Both the position numbers and the translations under genes were made by a program. This document shows, one piece after another, positions 15,747 to 52,021 of a stretch of DNA of 64,000 bases (positions are counted from its first letter, which is position 1; each line of letters starts with the position of its first letter). The notes beneath the pieces were generated by a model. The model saw only the letters and a list, made by a program, of their open reading frames with translations. It had not been told where the DNA came from and ran no database searches. The stretch is from Anaerolineales bacterium (GTDB lineage Bacteria > Chloroflexota > Anaerolineae > Anaerolineales > E44-bin32): contig DAOUEJ010000216.1 in NCBI GenBank assembly GCA_034430615.1, forward strand, positions 19,016-83,015. The letters run 5' to 3'.

Positions 15747-17503
15747 ACGATTGTAGGGGCTGTCCCAAAAGGGCAGCCCCATTCGCGTTTTAAGAGCAAA
15801 TCACTAGAATGGGGGACATGAAAAAGAAGAAAAGTCCACACGCTGTGTTCAAACCCTACACGATGGGCCAGCTGCAGCTCCCTACGAATCTAGAAGACCT
15901 CATCCCCGATGGTCACCTGGTGAGAAGGGTGCATGAAGCGATTGAGCGGGTGAATCTAGATCCCCTGATCCAGCAATACAAAGGGGGAGGGACCAGCAGC
16001 TACCATCCGAAGATGATGTTGAAGGTGCTGGTGTATGCCTACACCCAGCAGATCTACTCGTCACGGAAGATTGCCAAGGCGCTGCGGGAGAACATCCACT
16101 TCATGTGGATCAGCGGGAACAGCAGGCCGGACTTCCGCACGATCAACCGCTTCCGGGGCGAAGTGCTCGGGAAGGTGATGGCCGAGATCTTCACTGCGGT
16201 TCTCGAGCTGCTGATCGAAGAAGGCTATGTGAAGCTGGAGCATTATTTCCTGGACGGGACGAAGATCGAAGCCAATGCGGGCAAGTACACCTATGTGTGG
16301 GCGAAGAGCACGAAGCGAAACAAGGGCCAGTTGCAGGCGAAAGTGAAGCAGCTGCTGGAAGAGATCGAGCGGGTGAACAAGGACGAAGAAGAGGAGTATG
16401 GAGATCGTGATCTTGAAGAGCTGGGCGAAGAAGCTGAGATCGACGCCGACCGATTGGACAAGAAGGTCAAGGAGCTGGACGAGATCCTCCAGCGCGGATT
16501 GAGTGAAGGGGAGAAAAAGCCGGACAAGCGCGACAAGAAACGTGCGAAAGCCCTGAGGATCCTGGAGAAGGAATGCCTACCCCGCCTGCGAAAGTATGAA
16601 GAACAGGAGCGGATCCTGCAGGGACGGGGCAGCTATTCGAAGACGGATGAGGAAGCTACCTTCATGCGCATGAAGGATGATCCTCTGCGGAAGGCGCAGC
16701 TCAAGCCTGCCTATACCATCCTGGCACAGGGCAACCTCCAGTTGGGGACCGAGAACCAGTTTGTGGTTGGACTGAGTGTTCATCAGCGGCCGGGAGACAC
16801 AGGCTGTATGGTGCCGCATATGGAAGGGGTGAAAGCCCGCCTCGGCCGGCTTCCGGAGAAAGTCGTCGCGGACGCTGGTTATGGCAGCGAAGAGAACTAT
16901 GTCTACCTGGAAGAGCGAGGTGTGGAAGGCTTCGTGAAGTACAACACCTTCCACCAGGAACAGAAGAAGCGGAGCCGGAAGACGCGTTTCCTCGCCGAGC
17001 AGTTCCCTTACAACGAAGAGAAGGATGAGTTCATCTGTCCGGATGGGCGACGCATGCTCTATCGTGAGACAAGCCGATACAGGACAGAGAATAACTACTT
17101 GAAGGAAGTCCGCGTCTACGAGTGTGAAGGCTGCGCCGGGTGTAGGCTTCGCGCCGAGTGTACACATTCGAAGGAAAACAGACGCATTCGTGTGAGCTTT
17201 GTGCTGCAAGAATTGCGTGCAAAGGCCAGAGATCGTTTGCTCTCCGAAGAAGGGTTGGCTTTGCGTTCCAGACGCCCTGTGGAAGCGGAAAGCGTATTTG
17301 GGAGATTGAAACAGAATTGGCAGTTCAGAAGGTTGATGCTCCGGGGATTGAGAAAAGTAGAGACCGAGCTTAGCCTGCTCTGCATTGCACACAACCTATC
17401 AAAAATGACGGTTGCATAGCCGCCGTTCTTTTTTTTGCCACGCAAAAGTATGGAGAAAGGGCCGTCCAAGCTTCTTTTTGGACGGCCCCTACGGGTATCG
17501 TTG
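15747..17503 (+). mobile_element. IS1182-family insertion sequence (approximate ends)
   Basis: A single transposase ORF is flanked by inverted termini: aacgat..GTAGGGGCTGTCCCAAAAGGGCAGCCCC on the left and GGGCCGTCCAAGCTTCTTTTTGGACGGCCCCTAC..atcgtt on the right. I could not identify a target-site duplication. Confidence 0.7.
15809..17419 (+). CDS. IS1182-family (IS5-like DDE) transposase
   Basis: 536 aa. The N-terminus reads YTMGQLQLPTNLEDLIPDGHLVRRV...YHPKMMLKVLVYAYTQQIYSSRKIA. A central charged coiled region is followed by ADAGYGSEENY and the C-terminal LRGLRKVETELSLLCIAHNL. Confidence 0.9.
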   Translation: MGDMKKKKSPHAVFKPYTMGQLQLPTNLEDLIPDGHLVRRVHEAIERVNLDPLIQQYKGGGTSSYHPKMMLKVLVYAYTQQIYSSRKIAKALRENIHFMWISGNSRPDFRTINRFRGEVLGKVMAEIFTAVLELLIEEGYVKLEHYFLDGTKIEANAGKYTYVWAKSTKRNKGQLQAKVKQLLEEIERVNKDEEEEYGDRDLEELGEEAEIDADRLDKKVKELDEILQRGLSEGEKKPDKRDKKRAKALRILEKECLPRLRKYEEQERILQGRGSYSKTDEEATFMRMKDDPLRKAQLKPAYTILAQGNLQLGTENQFVVGLSVHQRPGDTGCMVPHMEGVKARLGRLPEKVVADAGYGSEENYVYLEERGVEGFVKYNTFHQEQKKRSRKTRFLAEQFPYNEEKDEFICPDGRRMLYRETSRYRTENNYLKEVRVYECEGCAGCRLRAECTHSKENRRIRVSFVLQELRAKARDRLLSEEGLALRSRRPVEAESVFGRLKQNWQFRRLMLRGLRKVETELSLLCIAHNLSKMTVA

Positions 17504-35590: not shown

Positions 35591-35663
35591 TGGACCCAGT
35601 GGGATTCGAACCCACGACCTTCTCAATGCCATTGAGACGCGCTCCCAACTGCGCTATGGGCCC
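35591..35663 (-). tRNA. tRNA-Ala (anticodon GGC)
   Basis: Folded by hand into a 73-nt cloverleaf: GGGCCCA-TA-GCGC-AGTTGGGA-GCGC-G-TCTCA-ATGGCAT-TGAGA-AGGTC-GTGGG-TTCGAAT-CCCAC-TGGGTCC-A. G3:U70 identity pair present. CCA is not encoded. Confidence 0.9.
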
Positions 35664-35676
35664 ATGCAAGTTCAGG

Positions 35677-35749
35677 TGGACCTGGCGGGATTCGAACCCG
35701 CGACCTCATCAGTGCGATTGATGCGCGCTCCCAACTGCGCTACAGGCCC
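35677..35749 (-). tRNA. tRNA-Ala (anticodon CGC)
   Basis: Folded by hand into a 73-nt cloverleaf: GGGCCTG-TA-GCGC-AGTTGGGA-GCGC-G-CATCA-ATCGCAC-TGATG-AGGTC-GCGGG-TTCGAAT-CCCGC-CAGGTCC-A. G3:U70 present. CCA is not encoded. Confidence 0.9.
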
Positions 35750-47322: not shown

Positions 47323-47586
47323 CTAGAGCTGTTCGAAGCTATCTAGGTTTACAACGAACACGGTCGCCCGTCGCTGGCCTGACTCGGCCGGCGAGCATGA
47401 ATTTCGGATGATTTCCATGGCCTGATCGATGCGTCCTTCTTCCGTTCCGATCAGGAGCGTCGTGTTTCCCCTTCGCAGGAATCCCCCGGTTGAAGCGATA
47501 TAGGTCACCCGGAATTCCTGCTTGATCAGCGCTTGCAGTGCTGTTTCGTAATCTTCGTTTCGAATGATGACAATCATGAGTTTCAC
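47323..47586 (-). CDS. PII-like cyclic-di-AMP receptor, DarA/PstA (YaaQ) family
   Basis: 87 aa: MKLMIVIIRNEDYETALQALIKQEFRVTYIASTGGFLRRGNTTLLIG.... It is colinear with my recollection of B. subtilis DarA (MKLIVA..QD.D...L...L....[20 protein letters not shown].IG). The GTG start lies 1 nt after the antiporter stop. Confidence 0.8.
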   Translation of the reverse strand: MKLMIVIIRNEDYETALQALIKQEFRVTYIASTGGFLRRGNTTLLIGTEEGRIDQAMEIIRNSCSPAESGQRRATVFVVNLDSFEQL

Positions 47587-47587
47587 G

Positions 47588-49477
47588 TCAGATCACCTCG
47601 CATCGTTCAACATCCAGGGCAAATAGCATCGCTCGATGGACATCGATCGGTATTTCACTGCGGCGCTCAGGATCCTTATCAAGCATCGCCGGTGGGACAA
47701 ATTCGACTCTCTTGCGGCAAACCCGACGCAGCGTATCCTCAGCGTCCTCGAGCTTTCCTTCCGGGAGACCAATCAGGAGCAGGTGGTTCCGCCGACGGAG
47801 AAAGCCGCCATTACTTTGGATGCGTGTCACCCGCAGCCCTTGCATGGCCAGGGCATTTGAGGCCGATTCCAGATCAAGGGTGCTTACAATGATAAACAGC
47901 AGCTGGCAGATGTCATCCTCCCCGCCGCGCGGCATGAAATCCGAAATCCACGATTCCTGCCTGGAATCGAGTGCCAGGTCGACTTCGACAACGAGTTCAT
48001 CGAAGGATTCATCTGAAATCGCGCCAGAACGCCGCAAGTTTCCCAGCGCGCTGCGCTGGGCCCTCAACATCTCCCTGCGCGCCAATACGATCTCTTCCGC
48101 CTCGAGCTCCGGAGTATCGCTCAGGACTTCCTGCACCGCACCGGTCAGAACCTCCTGCCGCTGCTTAAGCACCGGCTCCAGCGAACGCCAGGTCGCTTCC
48201 GAGATCAGTCCGTCGATGCTCAATCGCCGGAGATGCTGGTACCCCGCCCGAACTGCAAGGGCCCGGGCATGGCGCCGCTCATACTCGATCTGGGCGTCGG
48301 ATTTTGTGATGATGCCCAGCCGTTTCAACAAGCCATTCATCGTCATGCCCTGCGCGACCAGGCTGAAGAGCACCACGCCATAGGTCATGACGATCAAAGT
48401 CGTTCGCATCTCCCCGAAATCGGCCTCCGGAAGACTCAAGGCCAGCGCAAGGGCGATGGCCCCCCTCAACCCTCCCCAGAACATGACATGCCGCCAGGAA
48501 TTGGGGATGTCCCGCCCGAGGCGTGAGAGACCATAGATGCTGATCGCGCGGCCGATGAGGACCGCCAGGATTGACCACAGGATCAGCTTCCAGTCCTGCA
48601 CCAGAGCGGAGATCTCGAGATCCAATCCAATGAGCAAGAAGACGGCCGAATTGGCGAGGAAAGCGATGTATTCCCAGAAGTTGAAGAGCGCGATGCGTGT
48701 GGTCGGGGACATCTCGCGTTCGCCGATATTTCCGCTGATCATTCCCGCAGCCACGACCGCCAGAACACCGCTCAGATGAAATTGCTCGGCGATGAGATAG
48801 GATCCGAAAGCCAGCACGGTGGTCAGCGTCGTCTCGACCAAGTAGTCGTCGACCTGGCTCATCAGACGTGAGATCAGCCAACCCAGGACAGCGCCTACCA
48901 GGATCCCGCCACCGCCAACCCGGATAAAATTGGCCACCCCGCTGGCAATCTCAAAACGCCCACTTTGAAGTGCACCCAGCGCCAGGCTAAAGAGCACAAT
49001 GGCTGTGCCATCGTTGAAGAGGCTCTCGCCTTCCAGTAGGACTTCAAGCTGCCTGGGCGCACCAAGTTTGCGGAAGATAGCCACGACCGAGACCGGGTCA
49101 GTCGCCGCGATCAAGGCACCGAATACCAGGGCCGCGGAAAGAGGTAAACCAGCGCCGGTCGACAGGATTCCCCCCACGACCAGCATATTCACAATCACGC
49201 CCGGGATGGCCAGGATCATGATCGTTTTCAAATCGCGGCGCAGATGAATAAAACTCAGGTGGAAGGCGGCTTCAAAGACCAAAGGCGGCAGGAGCAAGGT
49301 AAGGATGATTTCTGGCGTGAGCTCGATCGCCAGGCGTTCCCGGAAAGAAAGCACCAGGCCCGCCAGGACCAGTGCGACCGTATACGGGATGCGGAACCGG
49401 CGCACCAGGATGGCGACAACCGAAACCACCAGCAGCAGTTCCAGTACCAGGCTCTCGATCTGGACTAAATCATTCAT
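47588..49477 (-). CDS. CPA1-family Na+(K+)/H+ antiporter with a C-terminal DarA/PstA-like domain
   Basis: 629 aa. The N-terminal ~400 aa is a typical NhaP-type exchanger (ATDPVSV..IF...G.....LEGESLFNDGTAIV). The last ~115 aa (47591..47935) read LLFIIVSTLDLESASNALAMQGLRVTRIQSNGGFLRRRNHLLLIGLPEGKLEDAEDTLRRVC, paralogous to the downstream DarA-like protein. Confidence 0.85.
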   Translation of the reverse strand: MNDLVQIESLVLELLLVVSVVAILVRRFRIPYTVALVLAGLVLSFRERLAIELTPEIILTLLLPPLVFEAAFHLSFIHLRRDLKTIMILAIPGVIVNMLVVGGILSTGAGLPLSAALVFGALIAATDPVSVVAIFRKLGAPRQLEVLLEGESLFNDGTAIVLFSLALGALQSGRFEIASGVANFIRVGGGGILVGAVLGWLISRLMSQVDDYLVETTLTTVLAFGSYLIAEQFHLSGVLAVVAAGMISGNIGEREMSPTTRIALFNFWEYIAFLANSAVFLLIGLDLEISALVQDWKLILWSILAVLIGRAISIYGLSRLGRDIPNSWRHVMFWGGLRGAIALALALSLPEADFGEMRTTLIVMTYGVVLFSLVAQGMTMNGLLKRLGIITKSDAQIEYERRHARALAVRAGYQHLRRLSIDGLISEATWRSLEPVLKQRQEVLTGAVQEVLSDTPELEAEEIVLARREMLRAQRSALGNLRRSGAISDESFDELVVEVDLALDSRQESWISDFMPRGGEDDICQLLFIIVSTLDLESASNALAMQGLRVTRIQSNGGFLRRRNHLLLIGLPEGKLEDAEDTLRRVCRKRVEFVPPAMLDKDPERRSEIPIDVHRAMLFALDVERCEVI

Positions 49478-49505: not shown

Positions 49506-51908
49506 TCACTCTCTTTCACGGTCCTGCTCGATCCAGGTTCTGCCCTCGCCTGTCACGCGTGCCAAGCCTCCATCCGGGAATGTGATAATAACATGATCGC
49601 CCTTGTAGGAAACGCTCAAACCACGCCAGCGAATTGTTACCGGCCAGGGGTAAGGGTTTCCGGGTTCAACTTGCACCCGGTAGGGATCGCCAAGCTGAAG
49701 CCCGAGAGTGCGTAGGAAGAGATCCAATGGCGCCAGTCCGTCAAGAGCACCGCACTCACCAAGGGCTTGTGGTTCATCTGGATGGTATAGTGCGCTGAAA
49801 TCCTGATCCCTGCGGAGCCCGGAGATGACGGCTCCCATTAAGCGGCCCACGAGTTCGGCCGCTTCTTTACGGAAGCCATTGTCGAGCATCCCCTCTCCCA
49901 CCAGGCAATTGGCAAACATCCATACCGCACCCGGATTGCCCTCTTTGTCAGGCGCATAGCCCGTTTCACGGGCAGACACGATGGGGATGCCAAATGCCCG
50001 CCAGAAGCGCTTTTCGTCCAGAATCGTTCGTGTCACCATCTGGCGTGCACGGTCTGCTTCTAACATACCTGCCCAGAGTGGGAACAATCCGGCCACATCA
50101 TGCTGGCTGGTATCCACAAGCCTGATTTCTGTCGTGAAACCGTCGTCGAGACCTCCGATCGTGACCGAATTCAAGGCGCGGGCTGATTTATCAGCTGTAG
50201 CTGTACCCATCTTCCAGAACCACTGGAAGCTTGCATGGGAGAACCGTTCGACCATCTTGCGGTTCGTGCTTCCCTTCCCTCGGATGCTAACTTTGATCTC
50301 CTTAGACTCAAGTTCATCACCAAAGCAGCGGATAAGAACCCGGACCGGGGCCTCAAAGCTGCGCTTAAGCTCAAGGTCGAAAGACCCTTTCCCCTTACCA
50401 AGTCGGTCCCCAATTAAAGGTATGTTCATATCCCGGTCCTGCGAAACAAAGATTGAAGACTTCTCAACCCAGCAGGATTCGAGGGCCTTTCTGATGTTTT
50501 CAGCAGTTGATTCGATCCACGCTAGCGACCTGGTCTCACCTATGATGTGAGCCATCTCAGCCAACCTGATCAACTCACGGTACAGATAGGCTGCCAGATC
50601 GGGGCGTTCGACCAGCGAAATATCCAGCCCCTGACCCCAGCGCTCCCAGCCGACGTAGGCTGGCCAGGCGCGAAAACCACTCTGCGGCATGTGGCGCCAC
50701 TCCGGGAAGCCATCCCTATCGGTATCACGCTCCTCGCCAAACCAGCTACGAACCGAATGCAGCAAGGCCGGGAAAACCTCAGCCAGCATCTCGTTATTTC
50801 CGGTGCGGGTGTAGATCCTGTGGGCCAGGTCTGCGAGGAGTGGCATGCTCTCCCAGCCTGCATGCTGGCCACCCACGCCCGGTTGTCCGTCGATGGCGCC
50901 GCTCCCGGTTTCGGTTTGCAGACGATTTCGCAGCTCGCCCTCCACCAACCCCGGTGCAGCCGACAGCACCTGCCGGCTGATATAATGCGCGCTGGCAGCA
51001 TCTACACCACCCCACACCCCGTCATAATCACTGCCATCTCCGGCGGCGGAATAACCGTCAGCAGGTCTCCGCCGGCCCACAATCCCCGGGTAGCGAACAT
51101 GACGGGTTGGACCCACGAATGCCTGCAGACCGGCCACCTGGGAAAACCAGAAGGCGGCATCCCATTCTGGATCTCCTGTCTCGATCTCGACCAGGCCAGC
51201 GTTGAGCAACTTGATCCTTGCGATGCTCGCCTCCCAGGGAAGTCCGCACAGCCGCCGGGCCTGGTCAAAGGAAGCCCGCGGTTCCCTTTCACCTACATGC
51301 GCCCATAACCACGAACGGCTTCTGCCGGAGGCAAGATTGGCGCTTACCCCCAGCGATGGAAATGCAGAGGGTGGCGTTACTGCACCCCCTTCGATGAAGA
51401 TAAGGGGTGCAAGTCTCTCAAGTCCAGCTGTCAGCACATGCACCCCGTCAATCTGAACCGGGGAAAAGGGTGTCCCACCTGGTCCGGGACGGAGAACTGC
51501 ATGCAGCCGTACATCCAATACGAAAGGTGCTTCACCCCGGTTGATTACTTCGATACGTCCAATCACGGAATGGGAATCATGGACCCAGTATTCCTGCCGA
51601 AGTTGAATCCCGGCAAGTGGGTAAGCGTTCACCAGTAGGTAATTAGGGAAGATAATCTGGACCTGAGGTGGCTGGATGAAGGATGCCGGGTCAAGGACAT
51701 GCTGGCCGCCCACCGCAATCGAAGCGAAGAGGCGCATGCTGGGTGCGCGCAGACCATAAGTCGTCTCCAGCGCAAGCGCCGCCGGGTCGCCTCCGGCAAG
51801 GTTTAGAGCCCAGATCTGGTCATCCGTATAATCGACAGTAACCTGGCGGGCATCGGCCGCAATCAGCAGACGACGGGCATCCTCGTGTTTAAAACTCCAG
51901 CTTCGCAT
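49506..51908 (-). CDS. Putative (alpha/alpha)6-barrel glycoside hydrolase (GH63/MGH1-like or related); family uncertain
   Basis: About 800 aa with no signal peptide. Blocks such as RDTDRDGFPEW and VWMFANCLVGEGMLDNG resemble GH63/GH15/trehalase-type barrels. Weak, by eye. Confidence 0.5.
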   Translation of the reverse strand: MRSWSFKHEDARRLLIAADARQVTVDYTDDQIWALNLAGGDPAALALETTYGLRAPSMRLFASIAVGGQHVLDPASFIQPPQVQIIFPNYLLVNAYPLAGIQLRQEYWVHDSHSVIGRIEVINRGEAPFVLDVRLHAVLRPGPGGTPFSPVQIDGVHVLTAGLERLAPLIFIEGGAVTPPSAFPSLGVSANLASGRSRSWLWAHVGEREPRASFDQARRLCGLPWEASIARIKLLNAGLVEIETGDPEWDAAFWFSQVAGLQAFVGPTRHVRYPGIVGRRRPADGYSAAGDGSDYDGVWGGVDAASAHYISRQVLSAAPGLVEGELRNRLQTETGSGAIDGQPGVGGQHAGWESMPLLADLAHRIYTRTGNNEMLAEVFPALLHSVRSWFGEERDTDRDGFPEWRHMPQSGFRAWPAYVGWERWGQGLDISLVERPDLAAYLYRELIRLAEMAHIIGETRSLAWIESTAENIRKALESCWVEKSSIFVSQDRDMNIPLIGDRLGKGKGSFDLELKRSFEAPVRVLIRCFGDELESKEIKVSIRGKGSTNRKMVERFSHASFQWFWKMGTATADKSARALNSVTIGGLDDGFTTEIRLVDTSQHDVAGLFPLWAGMLEADRARQMVTRTILDEKRFWRAFGIPIVSARETGYAPDKEGNPGAVWMFANCLVGEGMLDNGFRKEAAELVGRLMGAVISGLRRDQDFSALYHPDEPQALGECGALDGLAPLDLFLRTLGLQLGDPYRVQVEPGNPYPWPVTIRWRGLSVSYKGDHVIITFPDGGLARVTGEGRTWIEQDRERE

Positions 51909-52021
51909 GTGACGATTGTACGGAGTGCAACCCAAATCGTCAAAGTGAATCCAACATCGTGTTCAGCCGGGTGACTGCTTCGTGCTAGAATAACGGCCAC
52001 CCTGCCAGGAGGAGTACCAGC

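Follow-up and report, generated by a model that had tools for sequence, protein, structure and literature searches.

Here we describe a conserved pair of coupled genes in a 64,000-nucleotide stretch of the genome of an Anaerolineales bacterium (phylum Chloroflexota; GenBank assembly GCA_034430615.1, contig DAOUEJ010000216.1, positions 19,016 to 83,015 of the forward strand; hereafter the window). The first gene encodes a CPA1-type Na+/H+ antiporter fused at its C-terminus to a domain of the DarA/PstA family of receptors for cyclic di-adenosine monophosphate (c-di-AMP), and the second encodes an 87-residue stand-alone relative of that domain in which the long loop is cut down. Drawing on the architecture itself, its conservation, the predicted fold, the conservation of pocket residues and the co-occurrence of the long and short forms, we propose with moderate confidence that the pair forms a module, conserved in Anaerolineae, in which a CPA1 exchanger would be controlled by c-di-AMP through a heteromeric long/short PII-like receptor.

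[quoted passage not shown] The transport systems CpaA and KhtTU sense the same messenger through RCK_C/TrkA_C domains carried on CPA2-type transporters, and proteins with diadenylate-cyclase (DAC) domains occur in Chloroflexi.

The ligand pocket of PstA is well described. Alanine substitution at T28, in the 34-GGFL-37 turn or at N41 weakens or abolishes c-di-AMP binding, and crystal structures add the G47 backbone, stacking on F99 and Q/H108, with R26 dispensable. Where two subunits meet, residue 108 from one and G94 from the other touch the same phosphate. A kink at 94-GGA-96 lets a B-loop of ~30 residues swing onto the ligand, and this loop moves upon c-di-AMP binding; a loop deletion (delta71-87) still bound c-di-AMP in lysates. 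The partners of DarA/PstA were called enigmatic in 2023, unidentified “despite extensive efforts”, and were still reported as unknown in December 2025, in agreement with a first-pass annotation of the window, which had remarked that the target of these receptors was hard to pin down. A preprint of July 2026 names GlnR as the first PstA target, in Staphylococcus aureus, with weak and transient binding. Campeotto et al. reported homologs of PstA from green non-sulfur bacteria, with three paralogs in Sphaerobacter and Thermomicrobium, and described neither a fusion nor a long/short pairing. No description of either was found in our literature searches, which covered the fusion, DUF970/PF06153 and PII-like transporter fusions. 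Precomputed Pfam annotations already show the architecture, which is, as far as we found, catalogued in databases but undescribed in the literature.

Results

A CPA1 antiporter with a built-in DarA/PstA-like domain

The fusion gene, delimited by its open reading frame (ORF) and by profile searches, occupies 47588..49477 on the reverse strand, on which all parts of the module lie; it runs uninterrupted from an ATG start to a TGA stop at 47588-47590 and encodes 629 residues, an exact sequence for which no existing database record was found. Pfam places Na_H_Exchanger (PF00999) at residues 16-385 with 248 bits, and the NCBIfam model a_cpa1 (TIGR00831) scores 329 bits against a cut-off of 279.6. 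Because the latter match spans residues 11-501, the receptor domain is to be seen as an extra on a complete antiporter. The PF00999 region forms a membrane transport domain (residues 1-387; 48317..49477), all-helical in the AlphaFold2 (AF2) model, which contains an ATDP motif (residues 125-128; 49094-49105) and an FNDG motif (residues 154-157; 49007-49018). We take these to be the CPA1 ion-site motifs as in PaNhaP and MjNhaP1, namely the T-D pair of the unwound helix and the N-D pair of electroneutral CPA1 members. D127, P128, S152, N155, D156 and R338 are invariant in 79 homologs and, judged from its profile matches, the antiporter part is a complete CPA1 exchanger, with intact ion-site motifs. 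A Pfam search found no RCK or TrkA domain in the protein at E<=1.

Behind the membrane domain lies a cytoplasmic helical domain of five AF2 helices (residues 394-514; 47936..48298), covered by TIGR00831 up to residue 501, which is the native C-terminal domain of a_cpa1-type antiporters. A flexible hinge follows (residues 515-524; 47906..47935), devoid of secondary structure and with a predicted local distance difference test score (pLDDT) below 50 at residues 517-519, in a model whose mean pLDDT is 78.7. The remainder (residues 525-629; 47591..47905) is a long-form DarA/PstA-like domain: PF06153 (CdAMP_rec) matches residues 526-625 with 44-48.6 bits against a gathering cut-off of 27, solved receptors are matched by sequence, and the model shows a beta-alpha-beta-beta-alpha-beta fold over residues 525-622, behind the low-confidence hinge. 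Foldseek ranks SLC9C1 of sea urchin and SOS1 of plants as the nearest solved structures, with 28-30% identity in alignments of ~530-550 columns that extend beyond the membrane domain, followed by NHE1/3/9, PaNhaP and MjNhaP1; the top structural matches, SLC9C1 and SOS1 included, were solved as dimers.

The fusion recurs in Anaerolineae

At least 120 protein clusters share the fusion. The best 120 are 58-100% identical to it and 613-636 residues long, all of them carry both PF00999 and PF06153, and those that bear a name are assigned to Anaerolineales or Chloroflexi. When one genome of each species was scanned, relatives came up in 117 genomes, of which 80 loci underlie the locus counts given here. 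All 80 come from metagenome-assembled genomes (MAGs) of Chloroflexota/Anaerolineae, nearly all with an intact fusion: ORF-by-ORF analysis recovered 78 intact fusion genes (617-726 residues) with a conserved junction region. Split genes occur in three poor or long-read assemblies (L061, L063, L066). Copy number varies in a few places, with two fusion-plus-short-form pairs in tandem at L074 (2465-7067) and two consecutive short-form genes behind one fusion at L076 (6693-7250) and L078 (1057-1633). The covalent fusion reported by the first-pass annotation is hence borne out by profile matches to both domains and by its conservation in dozens of genomes, and is not peculiar to the assembly from which the window was taken. 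It was found only in Chloroflexota.

A loop-less short form encoded by the coupled gene

The second gene of the module (47323..47586, GTG start, 87 residues) was assigned to the same family by PF06153, AF2 and Foldseek. Its product scores 83.5 bits against the Pfam cut-off of 27, over profile positions 1-65 of 109 only, and is predicted to adopt a compact fold (pLDDT 88.7) with a template modelling (TM) score of ~0.8 to PstA/DarA (4rww/4wk1/4rle), ahead of classical PII proteins. Fused domain and short protein are 46% identical over 63 ungapped residues (E=1e-17), and both match the solved PstA/DarA structures 4rww, 4d3g/4wk1, 4rle and 3m05 by sequence; the earlier statement that the antiporter C-terminus and the 87-residue protein are both of DarA/PstA type is therefore upheld. 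The description of the latter as a stand-alone DarA paralog needs qualification, since it is a genuine PF06153 homolog but a loop-less short form rather than a full DarA: the long loop that connects helix 2 to strand 4 is shorter by ~22 residues. Of 938 matches in the short-form family, the best 120 are all 85-97 residues long.

For a comparison of the pockets, 78 fused domains and 57 stand-alone proteins were aligned to Listeria monocytogenes PstA (LmPstA), whose numbering is used below. T28, GGFL and N41 are present in both window proteins and are conserved at 70-100% in both families, in agreement with PstA structures and mutagenesis and with the earlier suggestion that GGFL contributes to the nucleotide pocket. 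In the window fusion the pocket maps to T551 (=T28), G557-G558-F559-L560 (GGFL; 47798-47809), N564 (=N41), G570 (=G47), R590 and F619 (=F99). Across the fused domains D12, G34 and G47 are invariant (78 each), and T28 is kept in 75, G35 in 70, F36 in 69, L37 in 71, N41 in 66, R67 in 69, G95 in 65, A96 in 76, T97 in 73 and F99 in 75. Their B-loop, a putative effector loop spanning residues 587-616 in the window (47630..47719; pLDDT 52-65), has 28 residues between C64 and A96 in 59 of the 78, as compared with 31 in LmPstA.

The window short form carries GGFL at residues 34-37 (47476-47487), GNTT at residues 40-43, also on the reverse strand, a seven-residue loop, SPAESGQ (47374-47394), and RRA in place of the GGA kink (47365-47373). 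K2, T28, G40 and T43 are invariant among the 57 short forms, the other conserved positions being R26 (47), G34 (56), G35 (56), F36 (55), L37 (49), N41 (40), G47 (55), T97 (54), F99 (53) and Q108 (49); the B-loop is 9-10 residues long across the family and the kink reads (R/K)(R/K)A. On these conserved-residue counts the pocket of the short form departs less from the canonical one than that of the fused domain does, and the short form could plausibly bind ligand without its loop, because PstA delta71-87 still binds c-di-AMP. The alignments thus separate two distinct, conserved forms of the receptor: a long one that keeps the effector loop and a short one in which the loop is cut down.

Long and short forms occur together in three arrangements

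In the window the short gene starts 1 nt past the fusion stop, and its Shine-Dalgarno sequence, GAGGTG (47594..47599), lies inside the Glu-Val codons of the fusion’s C-terminal CEVI. A GAGG motif precedes the start codon by 8-12 nt in all 47 adjacent pairs inspected and is encoded by conserved C-terminal Glu-(Val/Glu) codons of the fusion. A short gene directly follows ~50 of the 78 fusions (45 by a first count, plus five that had been mis-scored through over-long ORF calls), mostly with a gap of -4 to +4 nt. The translational coupling proposed earlier from the 1-nt gap is accordingly retained, with its embedded Shine-Dalgarno sequence, in dozens of genomes. A promoter-like site, ATGACA-16-TATCAT (47889-47916; 10/12 consensus matches), stands within the fusion gene, at the start of the receptor domain; it precedes the short gene by ~300 nt and could permit separate expression of the short form.

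The two forms also associate as free genes and as single polypeptides. At L053 and L060, where no short gene adjoins the fusion, a free pair of one long (111-112 residues) and one short (90 residues) gene lies 1.8-3.4 kb downstream. An exhaustive search of 1.84 billion representative sequences with the fused domain returned 555 matches; among the best 150, which were examined, 36 are single chains of 206-260 residues that join a long form to a short form through a linker of 15-54 residues, with the long form first in all 36. Tandem long-plus-short genes recur: one was seen on 17 contigs, a second lies on a contig of 149 kb, and more than 80 further tandem clusters were found. In these proteins the long half is without K2 and keeps D12/R67, GGA and a loop of 28-34 residues, and the short half mostly keeps K2, with a loop of 9-17 residues and a degenerate kink. 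Because the two forms co-occur in three ways, as a fusion with a coupled gene, as a free pair and as a single polypeptide, they are most likely partners in one heteromeric receptor. In 41 pairs, the divergence of the short form tracks that of the antiporter’s cytoplasmic linker (partial r 0.48 given the membrane domain), as does that of the fused domain (partial r also 0.48), and long and short forms track each other with a partial r of 0.40, all three being correlations of the mirror-tree kind, which speak for the partnership but are confounded by shared phylogeny.

Two observations from the search of representatives stand apart. Full-length fusions (>=600 residues) are absent from the best 150, which contain C-terminal fragments only, and are abundant in 90% clusters; the absence is probably an effect of clustering or of the choice of representatives, and for that reason this library is unfit for counting fusions. 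One protein, P0428 (317 residues, 19 member sequences), combines PF00486 (an OmpR-type DNA-binding domain, Trans_reg_C) with PF06153, perhaps as a tandem DarA-like receptor joined to a DNA-binding module, and is of interest in view of the recent PstA-GlnR report. It could also have arisen as an artefact of gene calling, its contig being 2 kb long.

An ion-transport gene neighbourhood

The gene 28 nt upstream of the fusion encodes an MGH1-like glycoside hydrolase of 809 residues (49506..51935, reverse strand; PF22422, 97 bits), for which a PDB sequence search gave no match; such a hydrolase is the same-strand upstream neighbour in 40 of 77 loci. The sole promoter-like site upstream of the three genes lies at 51943-51915 on the reverse strand, with none in the 28-nt spacer, and the hydrolase gene is probably the first of the transcription unit. 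PF22422 is named after mannosylglycerate hydrolase, a compatible-solute hydrolase, a name that gives only a hint of an osmotic role.

The ion-transport gene neighbourhood of the module is conserved, with two recurrent sets of neighbours. The first comprises an unfused second Na_H_Exchanger (~405-450 residues) followed by a conserved protein of ~115-127 residues without a Pfam match, the stop of one often overlapping the start of the other and the pair usually lying just upstream of the fusion (L001 4333-5896; L060 8509-10136; L003, L004, L005, L015, L021, L025, L030, L039). The small proteins are mutually homologous (34% identity, E=1e-26), and because their only PDB matches, weak ones, are to PII/GlnK (E=0.008-0.8), they may constitute a second PII-like regulator paired with an exchanger. 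That those of ~115-120 residues at L001 and L060 are the helical linker of the fusion, split off as a separate gene, was ruled out, as no similarity was found. The second set is a CitMHS transporter with a CBS-pair-only protein of ~152 residues, an architecture like that of the c-di-AMP receptor DarB/CbpB; both adjoin the fusion at L053 (6727-8473), L060 (6724-8468), L029, L030, L047 and L055, and the free long-plus-short gene pairs of L053 and L060 stand behind them. The rest of the window is ordinary chromosome (LeuRS, EF-G, PBP1A and others). It also holds a DDE transposase (DUF772 + DDE_Tnp_1_6; 15809-17419, forward strand) and two adjacent tRNA genes (35591-35749, reverse strand), neither related to the module.

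Discussion

In the mechanism that we propose, a dimeric exchanger of the CPA1 Na+(K+)/H+ type would bear its own second-messenger sensor, and the coupled gene would deliver a short PstA/DarA-like subunit with the more canonical pocket residues of the two and no B-loop. Long and short domains would assemble on the exchanger’s cytoplasmic face as one heteromeric PII-like receptor, c-di-AMP would bind at the subunit interfaces, and the ligand would order or move the long-form loop and the hinge against the helical domain, thereby altering exchanger activity. Ligand binding, the heteromer, the regulatory coupling and its direction are thus steps that we infer from the observed architecture. As to direction, we tentatively favour activation of cation efflux by c-di-AMP, because CpaA and KhtT, both exporters of K+, are stimulated by the messenger and systems for uptake are inhibited by it.

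Several observations weigh against a c-di-AMP-controlled exchanger with a heteromeric receptor. Both domains, although members of the PF06153 family, fall short of the NCBIfam DarA equivalog NF058593 (cut-off 140), the fused one with 45-49 bits and the short one with 82. The window fusion departs from the canonical pocket at L566 (T43), H614-R615 (G94-G95) and M617 (T97), so that its GGA kink reads HRA where G95-A96 is typical across fused domains, and the fused domains as a family have lost K2 and carry E or V, not Q/H, at position 108. The adjacent short gene is missing behind ~25 fusions, meaning that the linkage is not universal, and the co-divergence of the parts carries the confounding already mentioned. 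There is also a mismatch of symmetry between CPA1 dimers and PstA/DarA trimers, and the tandem proteins imply a 1:1 rather than a 2:1 ratio. Finally, no diadenylate-cyclase hallmark motif was detected in the window or in any locus, thirty further window ORFs searched against Pfam included no c-di-AMP enzyme, phosphodiesterases among them, and an Rfam scan of the window gave two tRNAs and no c-di-AMP riboswitch, results that constitute weak evidence because the window and flanks cover a small part of each genome.

Three other explanations of the data were weighed. An artefact, in which misassembly or a frameshift joined an antiporter gene to a DarA gene, has a practically negligible chance of being right: the ORF is uninterrupted, the junction is conserved, and the fusion turns up again in 120 or more independent clusters and, as 78 intact genes, across 80 loci from many projects, while the few low-quality or long-read MAGs that deviate do so in the opposite direction, by splitting the gene. 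A more serious rival treats the short form as a soluble c-di-AMP receptor that acts independently on targets of its own, adjacent to the fusion through tandem duplication and co-expression, the fused domains acting alone. The fusions without a neighbouring short gene would fit this, as would tandem long-plus-short proteins in contexts without any transporter and the several PstA paralogs known from Chloroflexi. We nevertheless consider it unlikely, since tight coupling (-4 to +4 nt, with the embedded Shine-Dalgarno sequence) is kept over ~50 species and down to ~40% identity, the two forms pair as free genes and in single polypeptides too, the short form co-varies with the antiporter linker, and the sole loop thought to contact targets is the one that the short form has lost.

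Less probable still is the view that the fused domain has ceased to sense c-di-AMP and serves as a constitutive oligomerisation or scaffold domain, or as a sensor of another nucleotide. It would account for the sub-equivalog scores and for the loss of K2 and Q/H108, with kink and T43 degenerate in those fusions that have a short partner; the negative searches for c-di-AMP enzymes in the window and for cyclase motifs in the loci would fit it too, and the PII-like protein SbtB binds several adenine nucleotides according to PMC9974498. Against it stands the conservation of T28, the GGFL turn, N41, G47 and F99 at 85-100% in the 78 fused domains, a set that agrees with the family assignment first made from the letters alone and that includes positions whose mutation weakens or abolishes c-di-AMP binding by PstA. 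The domain also keeps a short T-loop, the feature by which ATP-type binding is excluded in PstA.

If the heteromeric long/short receptor is accepted, its stoichiometry could take more than one form. The mixed trimers suggested by the first-pass annotation gain support from the long/short co-occurrence and the single-chain proteins, but the ratio may be 1:1 and not 2:1. One option is that a single short subunit completes a trimer of two long and one short beneath each antiporter dimer; another, which fits the 1:1 tandem proteins, is that the receptor consists of long-short pairs or of stacked long3/short3 rings. The most canonical site would then be the interface between Q108 of the short form and G95 and the B-loop of the long form. 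At the opposite interface E627/V628 of the long form would face R72-R73 of the short form, and this contact may need no ligand, or the arginines may take over from the missing contacts of the loop. A wider generalisation, less likely than not, is that DarA-type receptors of Chloroflexota are natively two-component heteromers, in which the long form supplies the output loop and the short form the best-preserved half-pocket, and that these were built into a CPA1 exchanger in Anaerolineae. If true, this would be the first PII-superfamily sensor covalently integrated in a transporter and would give the DarA family a direct membrane target; the short subunit would resolve the two-fold/three-fold mismatch, either as a 2:1 trimer or as 1:1 pairs, the latter with one canonical c-di-AMP site per pair.

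The module resembles several known systems. It shares with Firmicute PstA/DarA (4rww, 4d3h, 4wk1, 4rle) the fold, the short GGFL T-loop and T28/N41/G47/F99, and its fused form also shares the long B-loop and the D12/R67 pair, but those proteins are free homotrimers of ~109-residue subunits, whereas here a transporter-built long form is combined with a loop-less short form of 87 residues. CpaA and KhtTU are likewise cation/proton antiporters under c-di-AMP control, a control that is predicted in our case; they use RCK_C on CPA2, and the module, with a PII-like sensor on CPA1 and no RCK domain, is not a member of that group. SLC9C1 and SOS1 resemble the fusion as CPA1 dimers with a nucleotide-sensing module behind a cytoplasmic helical domain, although theirs is a cyclic-nucleotide-binding domain for mononucleotides, with a voltage sensor added in SLC9C1, and that of the fusion a PII-like cyclic-dinucleotide receptor domain with a partner subunit. 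In GlnK-AmtB and SbtB-SbtA, too, a PII-superfamily sensor is encoded beside a transporter and acts directly on it. There, however, a free trimer plugs a trimeric transporter with its T-loops; in the module sensor and transporter form one covalent chain, it is the B-loop that is long, and the transporter family is one of dimers.

The natural covalent fusion names a physical partner, a CPA1 cation/proton exchanger, for a DarA/PstA-like receptor. The first-pass annotation had read it as a Rosetta-stone hint that DarA-like proteins gate such exchangers. Because the fusion was found only in Chloroflexota, that inference is limited to this lineage, where it stands; it does not reach beyond, and in S. 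aureus it is GlnR that has been named. The fusion speaks for a link between DarA and antiporters in Anaerolineae only, and does not imply that Firmicute DarA/PstA acts on antiporters. The option of a heteromer was not considered for the homotrimeric Firmicute proteins in the literature that we found, and the long/short split points to a family able to work in this way, with sensing and output divided between subunits. One membrane protein and one 87-residue subunit make a simple experimental system for such work. If the proposed reading is true, c-di-AMP control of antiporters would extend from RCK to PII-like domains, and Anaerolineae would possess a bacterial counterpart to the eukaryotic exchangers that carry a cyclic-nucleotide-binding module, SLC9C1 and SOS1.

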